DNA from: Phyllosticta citribraziliensis
Lineage: Eukaryota
Length of the DNA stretch: 20,000 nt
Assembly: GCF_038025025.1 (NCBI RefSeq)
Contig: NW_027117338.1
Span: forward strand, 3,396,145-3,416,144
Reading direction: 5' to 3'
Each line of letters opens with the position of its first letter. The first letter of the stretch is position 1. The position numbers and the translations under genes are program-made. The notes below the pieces were generated by a model. The model searched no databases. It worked only from the letters and a program-made list of their open reading frames with translations, and had not been told where the DNA came from. Below, piece after piece: positions 1,389 to 15,797 of the stretch.

Positions 1389-2077
1389 GATGGCGGCGAC
1401 GGGCTCGAACAGCGGAGGAGAGGGTTGTTGGAGAAAAGAGGGGAGCGGTCCCCGTTGGAAGGCAAATCAAGGACTGCTGCTGGAGCTGATGGGCGCCAAT
1501 AATACGAGGGGCTCAGTCAGGAGGAAGCGAAGGAGGGGCAAGGCACAAGCAGCGGAGTCCGAGTGGCAGCGTGCGAGGTCCAGTGGCGACTTGGATATGT
1601 ATGGTCGCGCGCAAATGGTCCTAGGGCGGCGAGGGGGTTGCGGAGGGGGATTGACGAGGAGAGCGAGACGTGTTGGGAAATGAGCGACGGCCAAAGTCCG
1701 AGGGCGTGGTGAGGCTCGGGAAGTGTGTCGATCGTGACAGGGTCCAGGTGTGGCGGTGAAGTCGGGGCAGCCGTTCAGGACAATTGATTATCGTCGGGTG
1801 CTTCAGGTTGGCCCATGGGAAGATGTGTGGTGGGTGTTGGGTGTTGACGGGAGTGACAGGTGTGAGTTGTGGCCCTGCGGCTCTTCCACGACCTCCAGGC
1901 TGTCCTGTCCGGGTGCCTCTGCCCTGCTCTCACCCCTCAGGCTGCCAGCAACCAGCTCCCTTGGCTCCAAGCCACCGCAGCCCAACCCAACCAATCAATC
2001 TGTCCACTGCCCTGTTTCGTCATTGCTTAGCATTCTATTCTCTCTGTTGTCTCTACTCTATTTCTCTACGACTACGT

Positions 2078-3667
2078 CTACAAAAGACTCTGCGCCTCCA
2101 CCACCTTCTCCTGCTTCCACTTATCAAACGAAAACCCCAACTCCTCAATCGTCCTGACCTGCTCTCTAGCCTTGCCCCGCTCTGCAAACGCCTTCTTGAT
2201 GTCTGGAAACCTCTCGCGACACCAATAATGCCACTCGCCCCATCTGGGCGGCGTCTTGCCCCCGGTCCCCTGCGCCGTCATGGCCCAATCGTGCATCGCG
2301 TTAATGTAATCAGCATCGCGCGGAAAAGCGAGCGTGTGAAAGTCGTTGCCATCGCCGTTGACCGCCAGCGTGTGCTCCTCCCACGCCCGCATCTGTGCGT
2401 GCGGTGGCAGCTCGAGGCGGCCGGCATAGGCGCGCGCAATCACGGCGCTCTGGACCTCTGATGTTGGGAAGGGGATGATGCGCTGGTTGAGCACGATGAA
2501 AGACAGCGTCGGGTGTGGCGCGTAAAACGAGTGCTGGTACGTGTTGTGCACCCGCGTCCCGTCCGTCACCAGCGGCGGCGACACGGACGAGAGGAACGGG
2601 AGCGAGTAAAAGTAGCCAGTGCAAAAGATGATGGAGTCGATCGAAGACTCGGAGCTTCCGTCCTCAAAGATTGCAGTCCTCGTGATCGGGTCCAGCTGCT
2701 TGATGGCCGGCACTTCCTTTTTGAAGCTGGGCACTGGGCCTGGCGAGAGATACGACGCTGATTTGATCGAGTTGATCAGAGGCAGCTTGCACTGAGTTGA
2801 AACCTGCGTCCCGATGTCGATGCCGGAGGCGCTGTTTCCGACCACAATCACTTTCTGCCAAGGGTCAGCTTCCTGTCCCTCAGTCGGCGATAGAAACCAT
2901 GCTCACCTTGTCCTTGAACGCTTCGGGGTTCCTATAAAACTTGGAGTGAGTGATGCTTCCGGGGTGTTTTTCGTGCCACTCCTTGATGCCTGGAGCATCA
3001 GGAATAAACGGCACGAAAAAGTGACCGTTTGCAACAACGACGGCGTCGAAGACCTCCTCCTTTTCCTCGCCCGACACGACGCCCTTCGTCTTGACGCTCC
3101 ACTGCTCCTTCAACGCACCTTGGTCCACCTTGGAATCAAGTAGCCGAACATCGAGCACCTGAGTCTCAAACTGGACCAGATGATTTACGTCCTCTGCATA
3201 ACGAGCGAGGTAGTCCTTGATGGTGGGGTGCTTGGGAAACAGCTGGCTCTCCTCGGGCATCTCAAGATCCGAGAAACGCATCAGCTGCTTCGGGATGTTG
3301 GTCTCGAGCAAGTCATAGACGGGCGAGAGGAACTGGGGATTTTTCCCCTGGCCGTCACGCCATATGGGCTTCTCGAGGTCATCTCTGGTCGGGCGCGTCT
3401 TGGGCACGGCGAAGCTTCCATCGTCCGTGTCTTCGGGCGTGTAGTTCCAGAGGCCGCCAGGAGCGCTGCGCTGCTCAAAGGCGACGATGCGCTTGAACTT
3501 GTTCTCGGCGCTCAGGTACCTGGAGAGGCGTGAGCAGGGAGCGTCGCAAGTCGCACCAGCTGGTCGAGAGTAGGTACCTACTTAAGAGCCGCGAGTCCGC
3601 TCGGACCAGCTCCGATGACGGCAATGTTTTGGACGTTGAAGTTGATGTTTGACGAAGTGGTGGCCAT
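2078..3667 (-). CDS. Flavin-containing (thiol-specific, Fmo1-like) monooxygenase, ~491 aa. Exons 3667-3582, 3519-2907, 2854-2078
   Basis: FAD-binding IAVIGAGPSG, FEQR..PGGLWNY, FMO signature-like HPGSITHSKFYR, NADPH-binding VIVVGNSASG and IIFCTGY. Introns 3520-3581 and 2855-2906 restore one 1476-nt frame. Confidence 0.93.
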
Positions 3668-10183: not shown

Positions 10184-12001
10184 GCATCCAACGCTCTTGT
10201 GTACTTGCTTTACTTCTTATGGCGCGTTCCAACCGAGATACTGGACAAAACGACGCAATGGAGTGACGAGCGGAGAGAATATATTTTCGGCGAGCAGGTA
10301 ATGCGAAGAGAAAGAAGGGTAGACAGCATCTTATAAGGCACACTTTGGCCTTTGGTACGTGTACAGTACCTCAAGCATGTGTTGAGTCACAAGCCTTGTC
10401 GTCCGCGGCCAAGTCTCCCCTCCCCTGAGTTCCGCCGCGAACACTCCCCCCTCTGCTCACCAGCAGCTTCTTACGCCAAAACTTCGGACCACCACATCAA
10501 CGAACCATAGGTGAGTCGACCAGAATCCACTGGTAGGCGGCGTTCTCAAGGAATCCTAGTGCAGCGTCTTTTGAACCAAGTTGCTCATTTTCGCAGCGGC
10601 CGCTTGAGACCCACACAAGTCGTCTACGGAGCATTCCTTCCGCCACACAGTAAACTCTTCATCGAGGTTTGAATCTTCTCGTGACGCTGGTGTCTGTTGA
10701 TGGCAGGTTGATCGATTTCTTGGTTTCCTTGCCATGGCGATGTTGGCCCGCACAATCAAGGAATCGTGCCGGCGGATGTCTCAGCCGAGTGCTGTTTGAG
10801 GTATGGGTCGGTAATACGCTGGGAGCACTTGAGACCCTCAAAACATGGCTAAAGACACACTCCCACAGCCATTAGACTAGCGTCGCGTTGAACTTTGGTG
10901 CTGGACATCCGCAGGTGATGCCACGACTGTGGGTTATGTCGCCATCCTACTCTCCACGCCATCCCTGAATGCTCCCTTTCGCCGTACAGGCTTTTCTGCC
11001 CCATCTGCGTGCTTCCCAAGTTCGCTGGCGCCCGAAGCAACATCTCCTTTTCGCATGTCTTCCCCAGCATCGCCCGCGTACCGCCGATACTCGAACCACG
11101 CGTCCAAGACCTCGAAATCGGCATCTGACGCGCTCAAGCTGTCCCGCTCGCTGATGAGCCGCGCTTTGGCTTCCCGGTAGACATTTTCGGCGACGTTGGA
11201 GAAGATTTTGCCGCTGCGGTGCGTCAGAAGGTGTTCAGTGAAGGTGGTAGAGGGAGGGCCGCTTACTTCCAAAAGCTGCGCGCTTTCTTCTCCTGCGCAA
11301 GTTGGTGTTCGAAGAGCTGCGCCGTTATGGGAGACATGTCGCGGCGATTTGGTGCGTTTGTTCTCGGACTCGCAAGCGGGTAGAAAGTTGTGTCGCGCCT
11401 CGGAGGACCAGACTTCTGTTCCAAATGGCCGGTGGTGAGCTCTGTCGGCAGGACCTGATCCAGCGAGCAGTATGTTTTTCAGTTTGGTTTGGAGGACAGT
11501 GGACAACGTAGTCATGGAATAGCGTGGGGAGACCTGCAAGTCGTGCTCTGGTGATACGCGCCCTCGGTGGTGTTTGGTGGTACGCGTCTCAACAGAGGGA
11601 ACACGAGACAACGCGGACACGGCTGAGACAAGACCAACAATTCTAGTAAAGAGTCGCGCTGTACCTGCCTTTGCAATTGAGAGAACAAGACATCAAGTGG
11701 CGGGTGGGCATCGAAGAAAGGTTGGACGAATGCAAACGCCAGAAAGTCGAACTCTTCGACTTGGTCATGCGCGATGCTGCTGTAACGTTCATAAGCGGGT
11801 CCCTGCAGGCTACGACCAGCCACTTGTGACACAAACTCTGCTGAATAGTATTGGCCGGCTTCGAAACTGTCATTCGACAGGACAATCAATGATCGATCAT
11901 GTGAAGGAGTAGAGTTTTTTGGACCCATAACCTCATCAGTCCATTCTCGTGCTGCTCTGCCTAAGCCGTATGAATTCGGGGCCACCTGACCATCAAGAAA
12001 C

Positions 12002-13381
12002 TCAATTGCGCATCCTGTTGGCAACCCATCTCTTCAAGACAAACTCCCGGACCTTGAACCTTTTCAAAAGCGCCCCAATGTCGGCTTCACTTCCGGCGCC
12101 GTTTTCGAGCGGAGGCGGGACATCAACGTAGACCATGACCAAAGTCTTGAGCACGTTGCTCTGGACGCGGCTGGCACAGTACAGCCACCACCAAGGGTTT
12201 TGCTCGGGCTTCTCCTTGTCATCCCAGTAAGAATGCGAGTAGGAGGGGACGATTTGAACGGCGAATTCGGCGTGCGAAAAGACCGGACCGCGGTTGTAGA
12301 TCATAAAGTCGACCGAGAACTTGACACCGTCGCGAACTACCCAGCCACGCGACCTGAAGTGGTGGTAGACGACGTATTTGAGCAGGAAAGAGTCGTCCGG
12401 GCGGAGGGCGGCTGTCTCAGCGGGAGGGAAATAGGAGAGAGAACGACAGAGACGGAAAAAATGCTGCACGTCGATACTCTCGTGTGTCTTTGGGTCGACG
12501 ATGTCGAGCACGCCAAGACCGTAGGTAAGGAAGAAGGCCTCCTCGAGGGCCAGTTGGAGATGCTCTTCGTTTTGCAGAGGGTCCTCAGAGGCAGTTTGGG
12601 TTGCCTCTTGCTGACCAATTGGGACCGTGGGCGGGTTTGCAGAGACAGTCGAAGACGGTGCTCCGAGTTGAGCCTCATTTCCGTTCATCGAAGCAGCGCC
12701 AGGAGCAGTCGTGCTTGGCGAAGTCGAGATGTCTTGACGGGCGGCAACAGCAGCGACAGTCGGCTCGTCGACAAGTTTGCCCTCCTTGCGCAGCTGTTCT
12801 TCGATTGCCTCCCGTTCCTTTCGAGCTCTCTCATTCTTGAAATCCCTCCTCTCCTGCCGCCTTTTCTGGGTATAGTCCTCGGCAAGAAGCTGCCCCGACG
12901 TTCCTCGTCGATTCTTCTCGCGGTCCAGCCAGGTAGGCTCGCTGCGACTCAGGCTGCCTTTTCCGAAAAAGCCTTGTTCCCAGAGAGCGCGGACACTTTC
13001 CCAGTCTGTGACGTGAACTGATTGAGTCTCGTATGAGAGGTAGGCGATATGGCGTTTTGGTGGGTGGGAGGGCGGCGGAAAGAAGTATTGGGACACCATC
13101 AGGTAGGCGACATGCAGTAGGGAGAGCGGATTGTGTGGCACGAAAGCTGGTAGTGGATAGGTCACAATGGGCAGTGGTCGCTCATGAATCTGGGCATAGT
13201 TCGGCCTCTTTGGACGTCTGGGAGCTGCCGGATTCGGAGCTGACTTGGAACTTGTGGTTTGAGAATCTTGTCCATTGGAATTTCCAGCTACATGGCCATT
13301 TCCCTCTTCCTGGGCTTTGTGACTCGACGATCCGTTGGCCGGCGTCATCTCGCCAGCCAGCGCTGTTGTAGCGTCGCCCAT
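12002..13381 (-). CDS. SEN2: tRNA-splicing endonuclease catalytic subunit Sen2, ~459 aa
   Basis: LWEQGFFGKGSLSRSEPTW, EHLQLALEEAFFL and YVVYHHFRSRGWVVRDGVKFSVDFMIYNRGPVFSHAEF..VLKTL with the Tyr/His/Lys catalytic residues. Confidence 0.95.
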   Translation of the reverse strand: MGDATTALAGEMTPANGSSSHKAQEEGNGHVAGNSNGQDSQTTSSKSAPNPAAPRRPKRPNYAQIHERPLPIVTYPLPAFVPHNPLSLLHVAYLMVSQYFFPPPSHPPKRHIAYLSYETQSVHVTDWESVRALWEQGFFGKGSLSRSEPTWLDREKNRRGTSGQLLAEDYTQKRRQERRDFKNERARKEREAIEEQLRKEGKLVDEPTVAAVAARQDISTSPSTTAPGAASMNGNEAQLGAPSSTVSANPPTVPIGQQEATQTASEDPLQNEEHLQLALEEAFFLTYGLGVLDIVDPKTHESIDVQHFFRLCRSLSYFPPAETAALRPDDSFLLKYVVYHHFRSRGWVVRDGVKFSVDFMIYNRGPVFSHAEFAVQIVPSYSHSYWDDKEKPEQNPWWWLYCASRVQSNVLKTLVMVYVDVPPPLENGAGSEADIGALLKRFKVREFVLKRWVANRMRN

Positions 13382-13416
13382 GGCTAAGGTTGCAGCGGAG
13401 ATGCAAAAATCGAAGC

Positions 13417-13624
13417 CTGTCTTGATTGCCAAAGTCAGCAAGGCTCTTGCGAAGAGATGCGCGTGTTGAGAAGATGATAGTTGATCAGATACCGTTGTAG
13501 TCTAATACAAAGAGACCATCATCGGAGGCAGCAAAAGTCAGTGCGCCTCCTTTGTGGAAACAAAGGTTGTCATCATGCAGTGAGGTGTATGGTTTCGGGC
13601 AGAGGGAAGTTACGTTTGACTCAC
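13417..13624 (-). other. 5'-UTR intron of SEN2 (208 nt) hosting a snoRNA
   Basis: Donor GTGAGT at 13624-13619, branch GCTGAC at 13439-13434, acceptor CAG ending at 13417, 35 nt upstream of the SEN2 ATG. About four times longer than the typical intron in this window. Confidence 0.75.
13482..13580 (-). ncRNA. snR79: Box C/D snoRNA, snR79-like (predicted guide for 18S rRNA 2'-O-methylation, yeast Cm1007 equivalent)
   Basis: C box ATGATGA (13576-13570), D' CTGA (13541-13538), C'-like GATGATG (13523-13517), D box CTGA (13488-13485). The guide AGACTACAACGGTAT next to D is complementary, with one mismatch, to the conserved 18S segment AUACCGUCGUAGUCU as recalled. The D+5 rule points to the second C. 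Confidence 0.88.
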
Positions 13625-14040
13625 CGGCTTCAGGGTATGAGCGGATCTGACGACTGGAGCTGTGGGTTGATCGAGTGAGCGTGTGAGTGGGTGTCAATTG
13701 GGCGTCGCGCAGGACGAGCAAGAGGGTAGAATCATCACATGGTGGGATGGTGTTGGAGGGTCGAGGTCGGGGTTGAAAAGTGCGGGCGGAGAAAAATGGC
13801 AGCCGCTGGGTGTGGCCTCCGGGGTTCTGCCGCCCGCCTAGCTGACGTCGGCGGTGGCCCCCGCCGTGGACCGGGAGCATTCCATTGGTTCCTCACCATC
13901 TACACACCATCAACCATCCACAAACTCACGTCACGTCCTCTTTCTTTTTGCTTCATTGGTGTTGTGCGTCTTGGGAGCATCTGTCATTCGGATTCATGAT
14001 TTTGTTCTCTTGCTGTCAACTCAATCCTTCAACGCGACTT

Positions 14041-14238
14041 CGGACGAGAACACCACGACAGGCGTATCTACGCTGTACGAGAACTCGGGCACTGCGGCGG
14101 CACACACTAGGAAGCATTCAGTCACCACTACGAATAAGGCCAGGGAGCTGTTATTCGTCATCGCCGTCGCGCTCAAGGAGCTTTCGTTCCCCAACACAGC
14201 CGCGTCCTGGGAGCTTTCATTCGCTATTAGGCATAGAC
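14041..14238 (+). repeat. Degenerate tandem array of six 33-nt units
   Basis: GGAGCT at 14144, 14177 and 14210, GAAGCA at 14111, and CGAGAAC at 14045 and 14078, all on an exact 33-nt spacing. The 33-mers starting at 14144 and 14177 match at 20/33 positions by hand count. Confidence 0.65.
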
Positions 14239-14372
14239 CGTAGTCCCTTGCTTTTTTTCTGCAGGACGCTGTCGCACAATATCCTCACAGAACCCTCAAA
14301 ATCCATCCAGTCCAAAAACGACTCTTTCATCTCTTCCTTTGGAATACCGCCTTGTTTCACGCGCGTCTCGAC

Positions 14373-15797
14373 ATGGCTGCTCCCTGTACGCTTGCCCGGG
14401 CCGTGCCCCAGATCTCGAGGCCGAATAGAGCGAGAGCTTTCAGCATTTCCTCGTCCACACAAGCCAGGAAGTCTCAGGCTCAAGCTACACCCAGGGCTTC
14501 ACCACCCAGGATCCCCCCAAAAGCCCTGGAGTACCGAAATGCCTCCCGCCAAAGGATCATCGCAAAGAAGGACCCAAAGCAACGTTCTCCAATGGACGCC
14601 GCCTCTGCACTAATCCGCAAAAGAGCTGCACGCCCAGATGTCAATCTTCTCGCCCCAGTCCATACTCCAGAGGATCCTCATGGTCTCCTAAAGCCCAACC
14701 ACCCGGCAGCCTCAATTCTGCAAAACTCATCTATCATTGTGCAGCGCCAGATGGAGATTATGAACGTCTTGATCGGATTCGAACAAGCCAACCGATACGT
14801 CATATTGGACCCCCAAGGAAAGCACATTGGGTATCTGGTCGAGCATGATGGCGGCATCGGGGAGCAATTCTCAAGACAAACTTTTAGGACTCATCGCGCC
14901 TTTACAACTCATGTCTTCGACGCGCGGGAGCGGGAAGTCCTCCGCTTTCATCGCCCATTCAGCTGGTTGAACTCCACTATTGGCGTTTACGACCCCTTCG
15001 ATGCCGCGAAACCACAACCTACTCCGGAGGAACTGAGCAAAGGATTGTCTGACGCCTCCACGATGCCATTGGTTGGAGCCACCCAGCAGCAGTGGGCGCC
15101 ACTCCGCCGCAAGTACCAAATGTTCACAACGATTCCTCGACATCTCACCGAGTCAAAGACCATGTCACCATTGTCACCAGCGCTCGACCTGCCCGATGAC
15201 CTGAAGTTCCGGGAACGCAAATCGCATTCACTTTCGCGGTTCGCCTACGTCAACGAGGGGGCATTTTCTTGGGACTTTACACTACGAGACAACGATGACA
15301 ACACCGTTGGCTCAGTCAATCGCGCTTGGCGCGGCGCGGCACGAGAAATCTTGACCGACACGGGTGTATATGCGCTCCGCATGGACTCTGTCGCCGAACA
15401 CCAACAGCCTCAAGAGGAACCCGTGGGTATGACCCTCGACGAACGCGCCGTCATGCTTGCCACGGCCGTGAGTATAGACTTTGACTACTTCAGCCGCCAC
15501 AGCAGCACGTTCGGATTCATTCCAATTCCCATCTGGATACCTGGAATCGGAGGAGAAGCCGTCGCAGGCGGAGCGGGTGTTGGTCTGGGCGGCCTTGAAG
15601 CTACTGAGGGCGCCATCGGAGCCGCGGGAGCTGCGGGTGCAATGTCTGCTTTCCGTCGCCAACATCCACAGCCTGGGGATGGCGAGGATTGGGGAAAGGA
15701 AGACCCTTGGGACAAGGGTAGTGGTGGCGGCGACGGCGGAGTCAGCGGTGGTGATGGCGGTGGTGATGGAGGCTTCGACATTGGAGATTTCTTCTGA
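14373..15797 (+). CDS. AIM25: Phospholipid scramblase family protein (Aim25-like), ~474 aa, probable mitochondrial presequence
   Basis: IVQRQMEIMNVLIGFEQANRY, RTHRAFTTHVFD, QQQWAPLRRKY, REILTDTGVYALRMD and LDERAVMLATAVSIDFDYFSRHS. Arg/Ser-rich N-terminus lacking acidic residues (RARAFSISSS). Confidence 0.9.
   Translation: MAAPCTLARAVPQISRPNRARAFSISSSTQARKSQAQATPRASPPRIPPKALEYRNASRQRIIAKKDPKQRSPMDAASALIRKRAARPDVNLLAPVHTPEDPHGLLKPNHPAASILQNSSIIVQRQMEIMNVLIGFEQANRYVILDPQGKHIGYLVEHDGGIGEQFSRQTFRTHRAFTTHVFDAREREVLRFHRPFSWLNSTIGVYDPFDAAKPQPTPEELSKGLSDASTMPLVGATQQQWAPLRRKYQMFTTIPRHLTESKTMSPLSPALDLPDDLKFRERKSHSLSRFAYVNEGAFSWDFTLRDNDDNTVGSVNRAWRGAAREILTDTGVYALRMDSVAEHQQPQEEPVGMTLDERAVMLATAVSIDFDYFSRHSSTFGFIPIPIWIPGIGGEAVAGGAGVGLGGLEATEGAIGAAGAAGAMSAFRRQHPQPGDGEDWGKEDPWDKGSGGGDGGVSGGDGGGDGGFDIGDFF

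Follow-up and report, generated by a model that had tools for sequence, protein, structure and literature searches.

Within the window, by which we mean the whole 20,000-nt stretch of DNA that was analysed, an open reading frame on the minus strand (13381–12002) matches the Pfam families PF01974 (tRNA_int_endo C, 8e-18) and PF02778 (tRNA_int_endo N, 1.5e-6). In the PDB its top five matches are without exception Sen2 subunits (E 5.1e-28 to 1.2e-24); archaeal EndA comes next, and no chain among the matches bears the name Sen34. We identify the product from its sequence as Sen2, a subunit of the tRNA-splicing endonuclease, which is the host gene that an earlier note on this DNA had proposed. A scramblase gene (14373–15797, plus strand) is divergent from SEN2. 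Cover by the RNA contigs described below is near zero in the bin 13780–13893, which lies between the SEN2 and scramblase transcripts (gap 13781–14372 of the window).

Upstream of the SEN2 start codon and on the same strand lies a predicted box C/D snoRNA of the snR79 (Nc CD18) type (13483–13580, ∼ 98 nt, ends predicted). The earlier note had described an snR79-like snoRNA here, and every motif that it named is found on the minus strand in the place assigned to it. The C box reads ATGATGA (13570–13576), a C′-like box GATGATGG occupies 13516–13523, and a 15-nt antisense guide (13489–13503) is followed by the D box CTGA (13485–13488), which is identified by the sequence, by the Rfam match and by alignment. 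A permissive Rfam scan of 13380–13700 returned a single family with E < 1, namely snR79 (RF01184), with a score of 33.4 bits (E 8.6e-4) and cover of all model positions (1–89). The match to the Rfam family thus stood, but its score falls below the gathering cut-off of 55 bits, and the whole 20-kb window gave no matches at gathering stringency. All 15 bases of the guide agree with the Rfam snR79 consensus, and the identity runs over 21 consecutive bases when the D box and one further base are included.

The boxes taken alone are no evidence for a snoRNA, since the pattern TGATGA-N60-90-CTGA is no commoner in the window than in shuffled sequence (one seen versus 2.33 expected). This count is what speaks for the possibility that an ordinary 5′-UTR intron happens to contain a box C/D look-alike. 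Against it, the guide 15-mer, with up to two mismatches allowed, occurs once in the window where 0.01 occurrences are expected, and at least 50 homologous loci (see below) share both the architecture and the neighbouring gene. With the guide statistic, the conserved alignment and the linkage to Sen2, we regard the look-alike as effectively refuted. The fold of the snoRNA (102 nt) is weakly unusual (z = −1.83; 12 of 200 shuffles were as good). No clear terminal stem is present beside the C and D boxes, where two of four flanking positions can pair; TGC...GCA terminal stems are found in many of the aligned homologues. Such a stem is usual in independently transcribed C/D snoRNAs and not obligatory for intronic ones. 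The guide and the family match support the prediction of an snR79-type box C/D snoRNA gene at 13580–13483, with a guide equal to that of the snR79 consensus.

Four of ten available sequencing runs were aligned over 11500–14900. Two of them (X1 and X2) come from the same organism and from two different studies; they consist of assembled contigs and so give no true ends or levels. We infer that they represent RNA from a precise GT..AG joint and from their adapter-flanked ends. One contig in each run joins 13420 directly to 13625 and thereby skips 13421–13624; the boundaries, CT..AC on the plus strand, are GT..AG on the strand of the gene. The skipped segment is a 204-nt 5′-UTR intron of SEN2. 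Its 5′ splice site GTGAGT (13619–13624) is seen both in the sequence and in the contig joint, and its branch-point motif CTGAC (13434–13438, within GCTGAC at 13439–13434) is read from the sequence, with the branch A at 13435. The 3′ splice site in use, AAG (13421–13423), is the first AG after the branch motif. The earlier note had placed the acceptor at the CAG 13419–13417, 4 nt away, which is unused in the assembled RNA; of the junction 13625/13416 that it predicted, the donor side is correct and the acceptor side has to be moved to 13420.

The non-coding leader exon 1 is covered from 13625 to 13780 by the spliced contig of X1 and to 13758 by that of X2, beyond which both run into adapter letters. 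Exon 2 (12002–13420) comprises a further 39 nt of leader (13420–13382) and the 459-codon ORF with its stop, all of which the same contigs span. The start of the spliced transcript therefore precedes the donor by at least 134–156 nt and lies well before the snoRNA, the contig ends giving no more than a hint of where the 5′ end is. A SEN2 start downstream of 13480 had been named in the earlier note as an observation that would make the snoRNA independent; the spliced contigs reach 13758 and 13780 instead, and the proposal of a 5′-UTR intron of SEN2 holds. The snoRNA (13580–13483) lies wholly inside the removed intron, and this intron contains one snoRNA. The donor is 48 nt before the C box; counted from the D box, the branch motif begins at +45, its branch A falls at +50 and the last base of the intron at +64.

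These data bear on whether the snoRNA could be a separate gene with its own promoter in the SEN2 leader region, overlapped by the intron only incidentally. Contigs cannot tell which precursor yields the snoRNA, and an Rfam-positive metagenomic homologue without donor or branch motif (L011, below) points to an independent arrangement in some fungi. However, transcripts that start upstream of the donor splice the snoRNA out in a GT..AG intron, the spacings to donor and branch A are conserved, and the terminal stem usual in independently transcribed C/D snoRNAs is missing from the window's copy; we consider a separate gene very unlikely. X1 and X2 cover none of the bin 13438–13551, which holds most of the snoRNA, and are uninformative on its level. 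A third run, X6, is a true RNA library from a relative (119 differing letters in ∼ 1,750 aligned), and one of its contigs keeps 13493–13639 unspliced; contigs of the fourth, X10, also carry the snoRNA region. The region is kept in both relatives at a divergence of ∼ 5–8%.

The X6 contig also jumps from 13493, inside the guide, to 13390, in the leader immediately ahead of the ATG; 19 other letters separate the two, and the skipped part opens with GT at 13492–13491. This could reflect a cryptic donor, a deletion in the relative or an assembly artefact. Exon 1 of SEN2 contains, on the minus strand, a minimal start-stop upstream ORF (ATG-TGA, 13740–13735) and an overlapping upstream ORF of 13 codons (ATG ATT ... 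TGA, 13735–13694); both are within the stretch covered by the spliced contigs. The 39-nt second leader segment of the window contains no upstream ATG. In 13 of the metagenomic homologues described below (L049, L088, L096, L109, L095, L004, L055, L064, L066, L099, L032, L067 and L039) an upstream ATG closely follows the predicted 3′ splice site, and in several of these it opens a 4-codon ORF, for example ATG ACN CCA CCN stop or ATG AAG CCN CGN TAG.

The internal anatomy of the snoRNA was compared in a MAFFT alignment of the window with 44 distinct metagenomic homologues (45 sequences). No variation is seen in the C box (as GATGA, 45/45), the guide or the D box, which for the last two follows from the design of the search. 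The C′-like box of the window aligns with a conserved block in which a T is invariant and the next G is kept in at least 90% of the 45 sequences. RNAalifold, run on the alignment, found nothing beyond a trivial helix within the invariant guide. Because the internal region is too unevenly aligned, the sequences were folded one by one, and by this count, which is approximate since it rests on single-sequence MFE folds, 43 of the 45 form a hairpin of at least 5 bp ending at most 8 nt before the conserved TG. In the window this conserved internal hairpin spans 13524–13550 (minus strand; GGAGGC(GCA) / (TGC)T GCCTCC, loop CTGACTTT) and abuts the C′ box. Its arms differ by group: GGAGGC/GCCUCC in the window, GACAGAUGGC/GCCGUCUGUC in L083 and GGGGAGCGAC/GUCGCUCCUC in L097.

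Two elements of the earlier description fare less well in this comparison. The CTGA that it had taken as the D′ box (13541–13538) lies in the apical loop of the conserved hairpin and is replaced by TTGA in the nearest relatives (L002, L069, L046 and L033), which makes its assignment as D′ box doubtful. The 7-bp stem that it had described (CCTTTGT, 13566–13560, with ACAAAGG, 13555–13549) is present in the sequence and overlaps the hairpin by 2 nt, but it is not conserved: relatives have unrelated sequence at the site, with no counterpart. For yeast snR79 the available text of van Nues et al. (PMC3116282) describes an atypical yet conserved C′/D′ motif and an inactive second guide. A CTGA in a hairpin loop and an unconserved stem fit this published atypical C′/D′ region, as far as that text goes.

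The guide pairs with positions 1012–1026 of the Rfam eukaryotic SSU model, with a single A.C opposition at guide position 8 (consensus C1019). By the D+5 rule, G13493, five bases before the D box, faces the second C of the AUACC in 18S helix 24. The pairing was read from the Rfam SSU alignment via an 18S-bearing metagenomic locus (L016), so that the 18S rRNA used is foreign and not that of this fungus. With the L016 sequence the guide pairs perfectly, a U being opposite guide position 8; the partner strand of helix 24 in L016 carries a G-to-A change that compensates for this C-to-U. The same U instead of the consensus C is found in 58 metagenomic 18S genes among the loci listed. No match to the 18S target site turned up in viral contigs when these were scanned. 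That snR79 guides Cm1007 of 18S rRNA, which had been stated in the earlier note, is borne out by the available parts of two papers: the modification lies in helix 24 and adjoins the E-site tRNA (PMC2794176), and it is nearly complete in yeast, its dependence on snR79 being validated by deletion of snr79 (PMC5199042).

A further explanation is that the element is a decayed relic that no longer directs methylation here and is kept within an intron that matters for SEN2 expression. The sub-threshold Rfam score would fit a relic, as would the possible A.C mismatch with consensus 18S, which would sit 3 nt from the target, and the missing extra complementarity to 18S described below. Yet no damage is seen in the C box, D box, C′-like box, internal hairpin or any of the 15 guide bases, and the diverged relatives in X6 and X10 keep the region. 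The same A is at guide position 8 of the Rfam snR79 consensus, and the available text on yeast reports nearly full, snR79-dependent methylation of Cm1007 (PMC5199042). A relic seems to us improbable, to much the same degree as a separate gene.

The extra complementarity consists of 9–11 nt of exact match to 18S rRNA. It is located in the hairpin loop in L002, L069 and L046 and between the C′ box and the guide in L011, L035 and L050, and is also counted in L033 and L004. On 18S the site is 81–93 nt downstream, counted from the first base of the GATACC target motif (the GAGAAATCAAAGT region of L016). Scored by a count of the longest exact complement, these matches are rarely equalled by shuffles (0–14 of 200); the longest in the window's snoRNA, against the foreign 18S rRNA, is 6 nt, which is the chance level. 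When RNAduplex was used to pair the entire internal regions with 250 nt of 18S, shuffles did as well, and the result was uninformative. The putative extra pairing fits the accessory pairing that the available text of PMC3116282 reports for snR79. One further locus, L027, contains two inverted copies of the 18S target region 430 nt apart (2001–2019, plus strand, and 2430–2448, minus strand), and is probably a chimeric or palindromic assembly.

The metagenomic homologues were found by scanning a metagenome collection with a 19-mer made of the guide and the D box, which gave at least 109 loci. Flanking sequence extends to up to 2 kb in 80 of the 109 loci listed and to ∼ 300 nt or less in the rest. 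Among these 109, 58 are 18S rDNA in antisense (the U variant), one is a chance match in a tandem repeat (L044) and 50 are of snoRNA type, comprising 48 recognized by a C-box regular expression, L050 with the C box CTGATGA and the partial locus L102. Linkage was called when tblastn with the window's Sen2 gave a match on the same strand downstream at E ≤ 0.01. Such a match follows the snoRNA in 44 of the 50 snoRNA-type loci among the matches listed (40 distinct snoRNA sequences). Where at least 600 nt of downstream flank is available among the loci listed, Sen2 is found in 29 of 31 (E ≤ 1e-21, 23–55% identity). Four of the six loci without Sen2 (L076, L085, L092 and L098) have downstream flanks of 127–300 nt.

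The other two, L005 and L014, are near-identical. Here the snoRNA (∼ 1994–2102, minus strand) is in a coding-region intron (GTATGT...CTAAT...TAG) of a lysine-rich protein, and no Sen2 is found within 2 kb; it looks like a snoRNA that was relocated to a new host. Two exons of the L005 host protein matched no Pfam family; our impression is that it resembles LOC1.

Splice motifs around the homologous snoRNAs were scanned for, which amounts to a prediction only. In 41 of the 49 loci listed a donor-like GT[AG][AT]G precedes the C box by no more than 130 nt, where chance would give about a quarter by a rough estimate, and a CTRAY branch motif followed by AG is found downstream of the D box in 47 of the 49. 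In 35 of the 49 the branch motif starts 45–62 nt after the D box. Rfam at gathering stringency was run on 20 of the 109 loci and accepted three as snR79 (L050, 85.5 bits; L011, 83.9; L035, 70.0), all linked to Sen2 and all yeast-like. With all passing loci yeast-like, the RF01184 model seems to be tuned to budding yeasts. L050 and L035 have the yeast-type signals GTATGT and ACTAAC around the snoRNA. L011 has no such signals: neither a donor nor a branch motif surrounds its snoRNA (1936–2021), which is separated by 185 nt from the Sen2 ATG downstream and looks like the state left after loss of the intron. Three states thus exist: a snoRNA in an intron of the SEN2 leader (the majority of loci and the window), a snoRNA adjacent to SEN2 without splice signals, and a snoRNA relocated to another gene. 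Synteny points to orthology, since the Rfam-passing L050, L011 and L035 and the window all have Sen2 downstream. These counts support the earlier suggestion that the linkage of snR79 and SEN2 is old, and indicate, on the strength of sequence comparison, that the order snoRNA-then-SEN2 is widespread in the fungal DNA sampled.

We conclude that the element at 13580–13483 (minus strand) is very probably the local orthologue of snR79 (CD18 of Neurospora crassa), housed in a single 204-nt leader intron of SEN2 (13624–13421). By analogy with other intronic C/D snoRNAs, RNA polymerase II would make one SEN2 precursor, and Snu13, Nop58, Nop56 and Nop1 would assemble on the C/D motif within the intron, ∼ 50 nt before its branch point. 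Once spliced out, the lariat would be debranched and trimmed by exonucleases to a snoRNA of ∼ 95–100 nt. Its 3′ guide would then pair with helix 24 of 18S rRNA and direct 2′-O-methylation of the C1007-equivalent next to the E-site tRNA and, as in the published account of yeast snR79, the 5′ (D′) guide probably has no activity. We further speculate that snR79 in the SEN2 leader intron is an ancient module under selection across distant fungal lineages rather than a frozen accident, in which snoRNP assembly and splicing set the output of SEN2, possibly together with the upstream ORFs, and in which the guide A opposite the consensus C of helix 24 is retained because it serves a function. This larger proposal we hold to be unlikely; if true, it would tie tRNA-splicing capacity to ribosome production.

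The genome gains a snoRNA gene that was not listed, and the gene model of SEN2 is corrected by a non-coding first exon and a 204-nt leader intron. Seen from the side of the snoRNA, the survey places snR79 and SEN2 together in most of the fungal DNA sampled, and the three states make this pair well suited to a study of how snoRNAs become detached from their hosts. A study of snoRNA introns in yeasts by Mitrovich and co-workers (Science, 2010) is reportedly relevant here. In the open-access papers searched we found no text that names snR79 together with SEN2, none that combines snoRNA, SEN2, intron and 5′ UTR, none that combines snR79 and YLR105C, and none for orf19.2735. The main text of ‘The fungal snoRNAome’ (PMC5824354) mentions neither snR79 nor SEN2, and neither a host gene nor synteny; snR79 and SEN2 are likewise absent from PMC4138321; and one supplementary file of PMC8476143 contains no sen2, snR79 or tRNA-splicing endonuclease. 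The arrangement itself is already published, as far as the available texts go, for Candida (as a 5′-UTR intron) and for Neurospora (as an ‘intron’), and we regard the breadth of the SEN2 linkage as a modest addition to what is published.

SNR79 of Saccharomyces cerevisiae is, we assume, an independent gene that adjoins SEN2. The adjacency, which the earlier note had put forward, has its match in the three Rfam-positive loci L050, L011 and L035 on yeast-like contigs. The window's snoRNA shares with S. cerevisiae snR79 (RF01184) the 21-nt guide and D box, a match over the full length of the model and an unusual but conserved C′/D′ region; it differs in being ∼ 10 nt longer and intronic and in its diverged internal region. 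We take orf19.2735 to be the SEN2 gene of Candida albicans. Donovan et al. (2016, PMC5033589) place snR79 of the Candida clade in a ‘5′ UTR intron, orf19.2735’, with synteny across four species; the available part of that paper gives the host under this designation and without the name SEN2. The Candida arrangement resembles that of the window in its 5′-UTR intron and differs in subphylum and in its yeast-type splice signals. Nc CD18 of N. crassa is an experimentally found snR79 homologue with a D-box guide for 18S-Cm1004, listed as ‘Intron’ in the available part of Liu et al. (2009, PMC2780460). Compared by its table description, it is, like the window's snoRNA, an intron-encoded snR79 of a filamentous fungus, with 88 nt versus the ∼ 98 nt predicted here. 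In Schizosaccharomyces pombe most C/D snoRNAs are in UTR or non-coding introns, according to the available text of PMC4138321. The pairs RPL7/snR59 and NOG2/snR191, as described in the part of PMC8476143 available to us, offer a parallel in which a snoRNA is kept in the same host intron across most fungi. In both of those pairs the host serves ribosome biogenesis and the intron interrupts coding sequence, whereas the window combines a tRNA-splicing enzyme as host with an intron in the leader.
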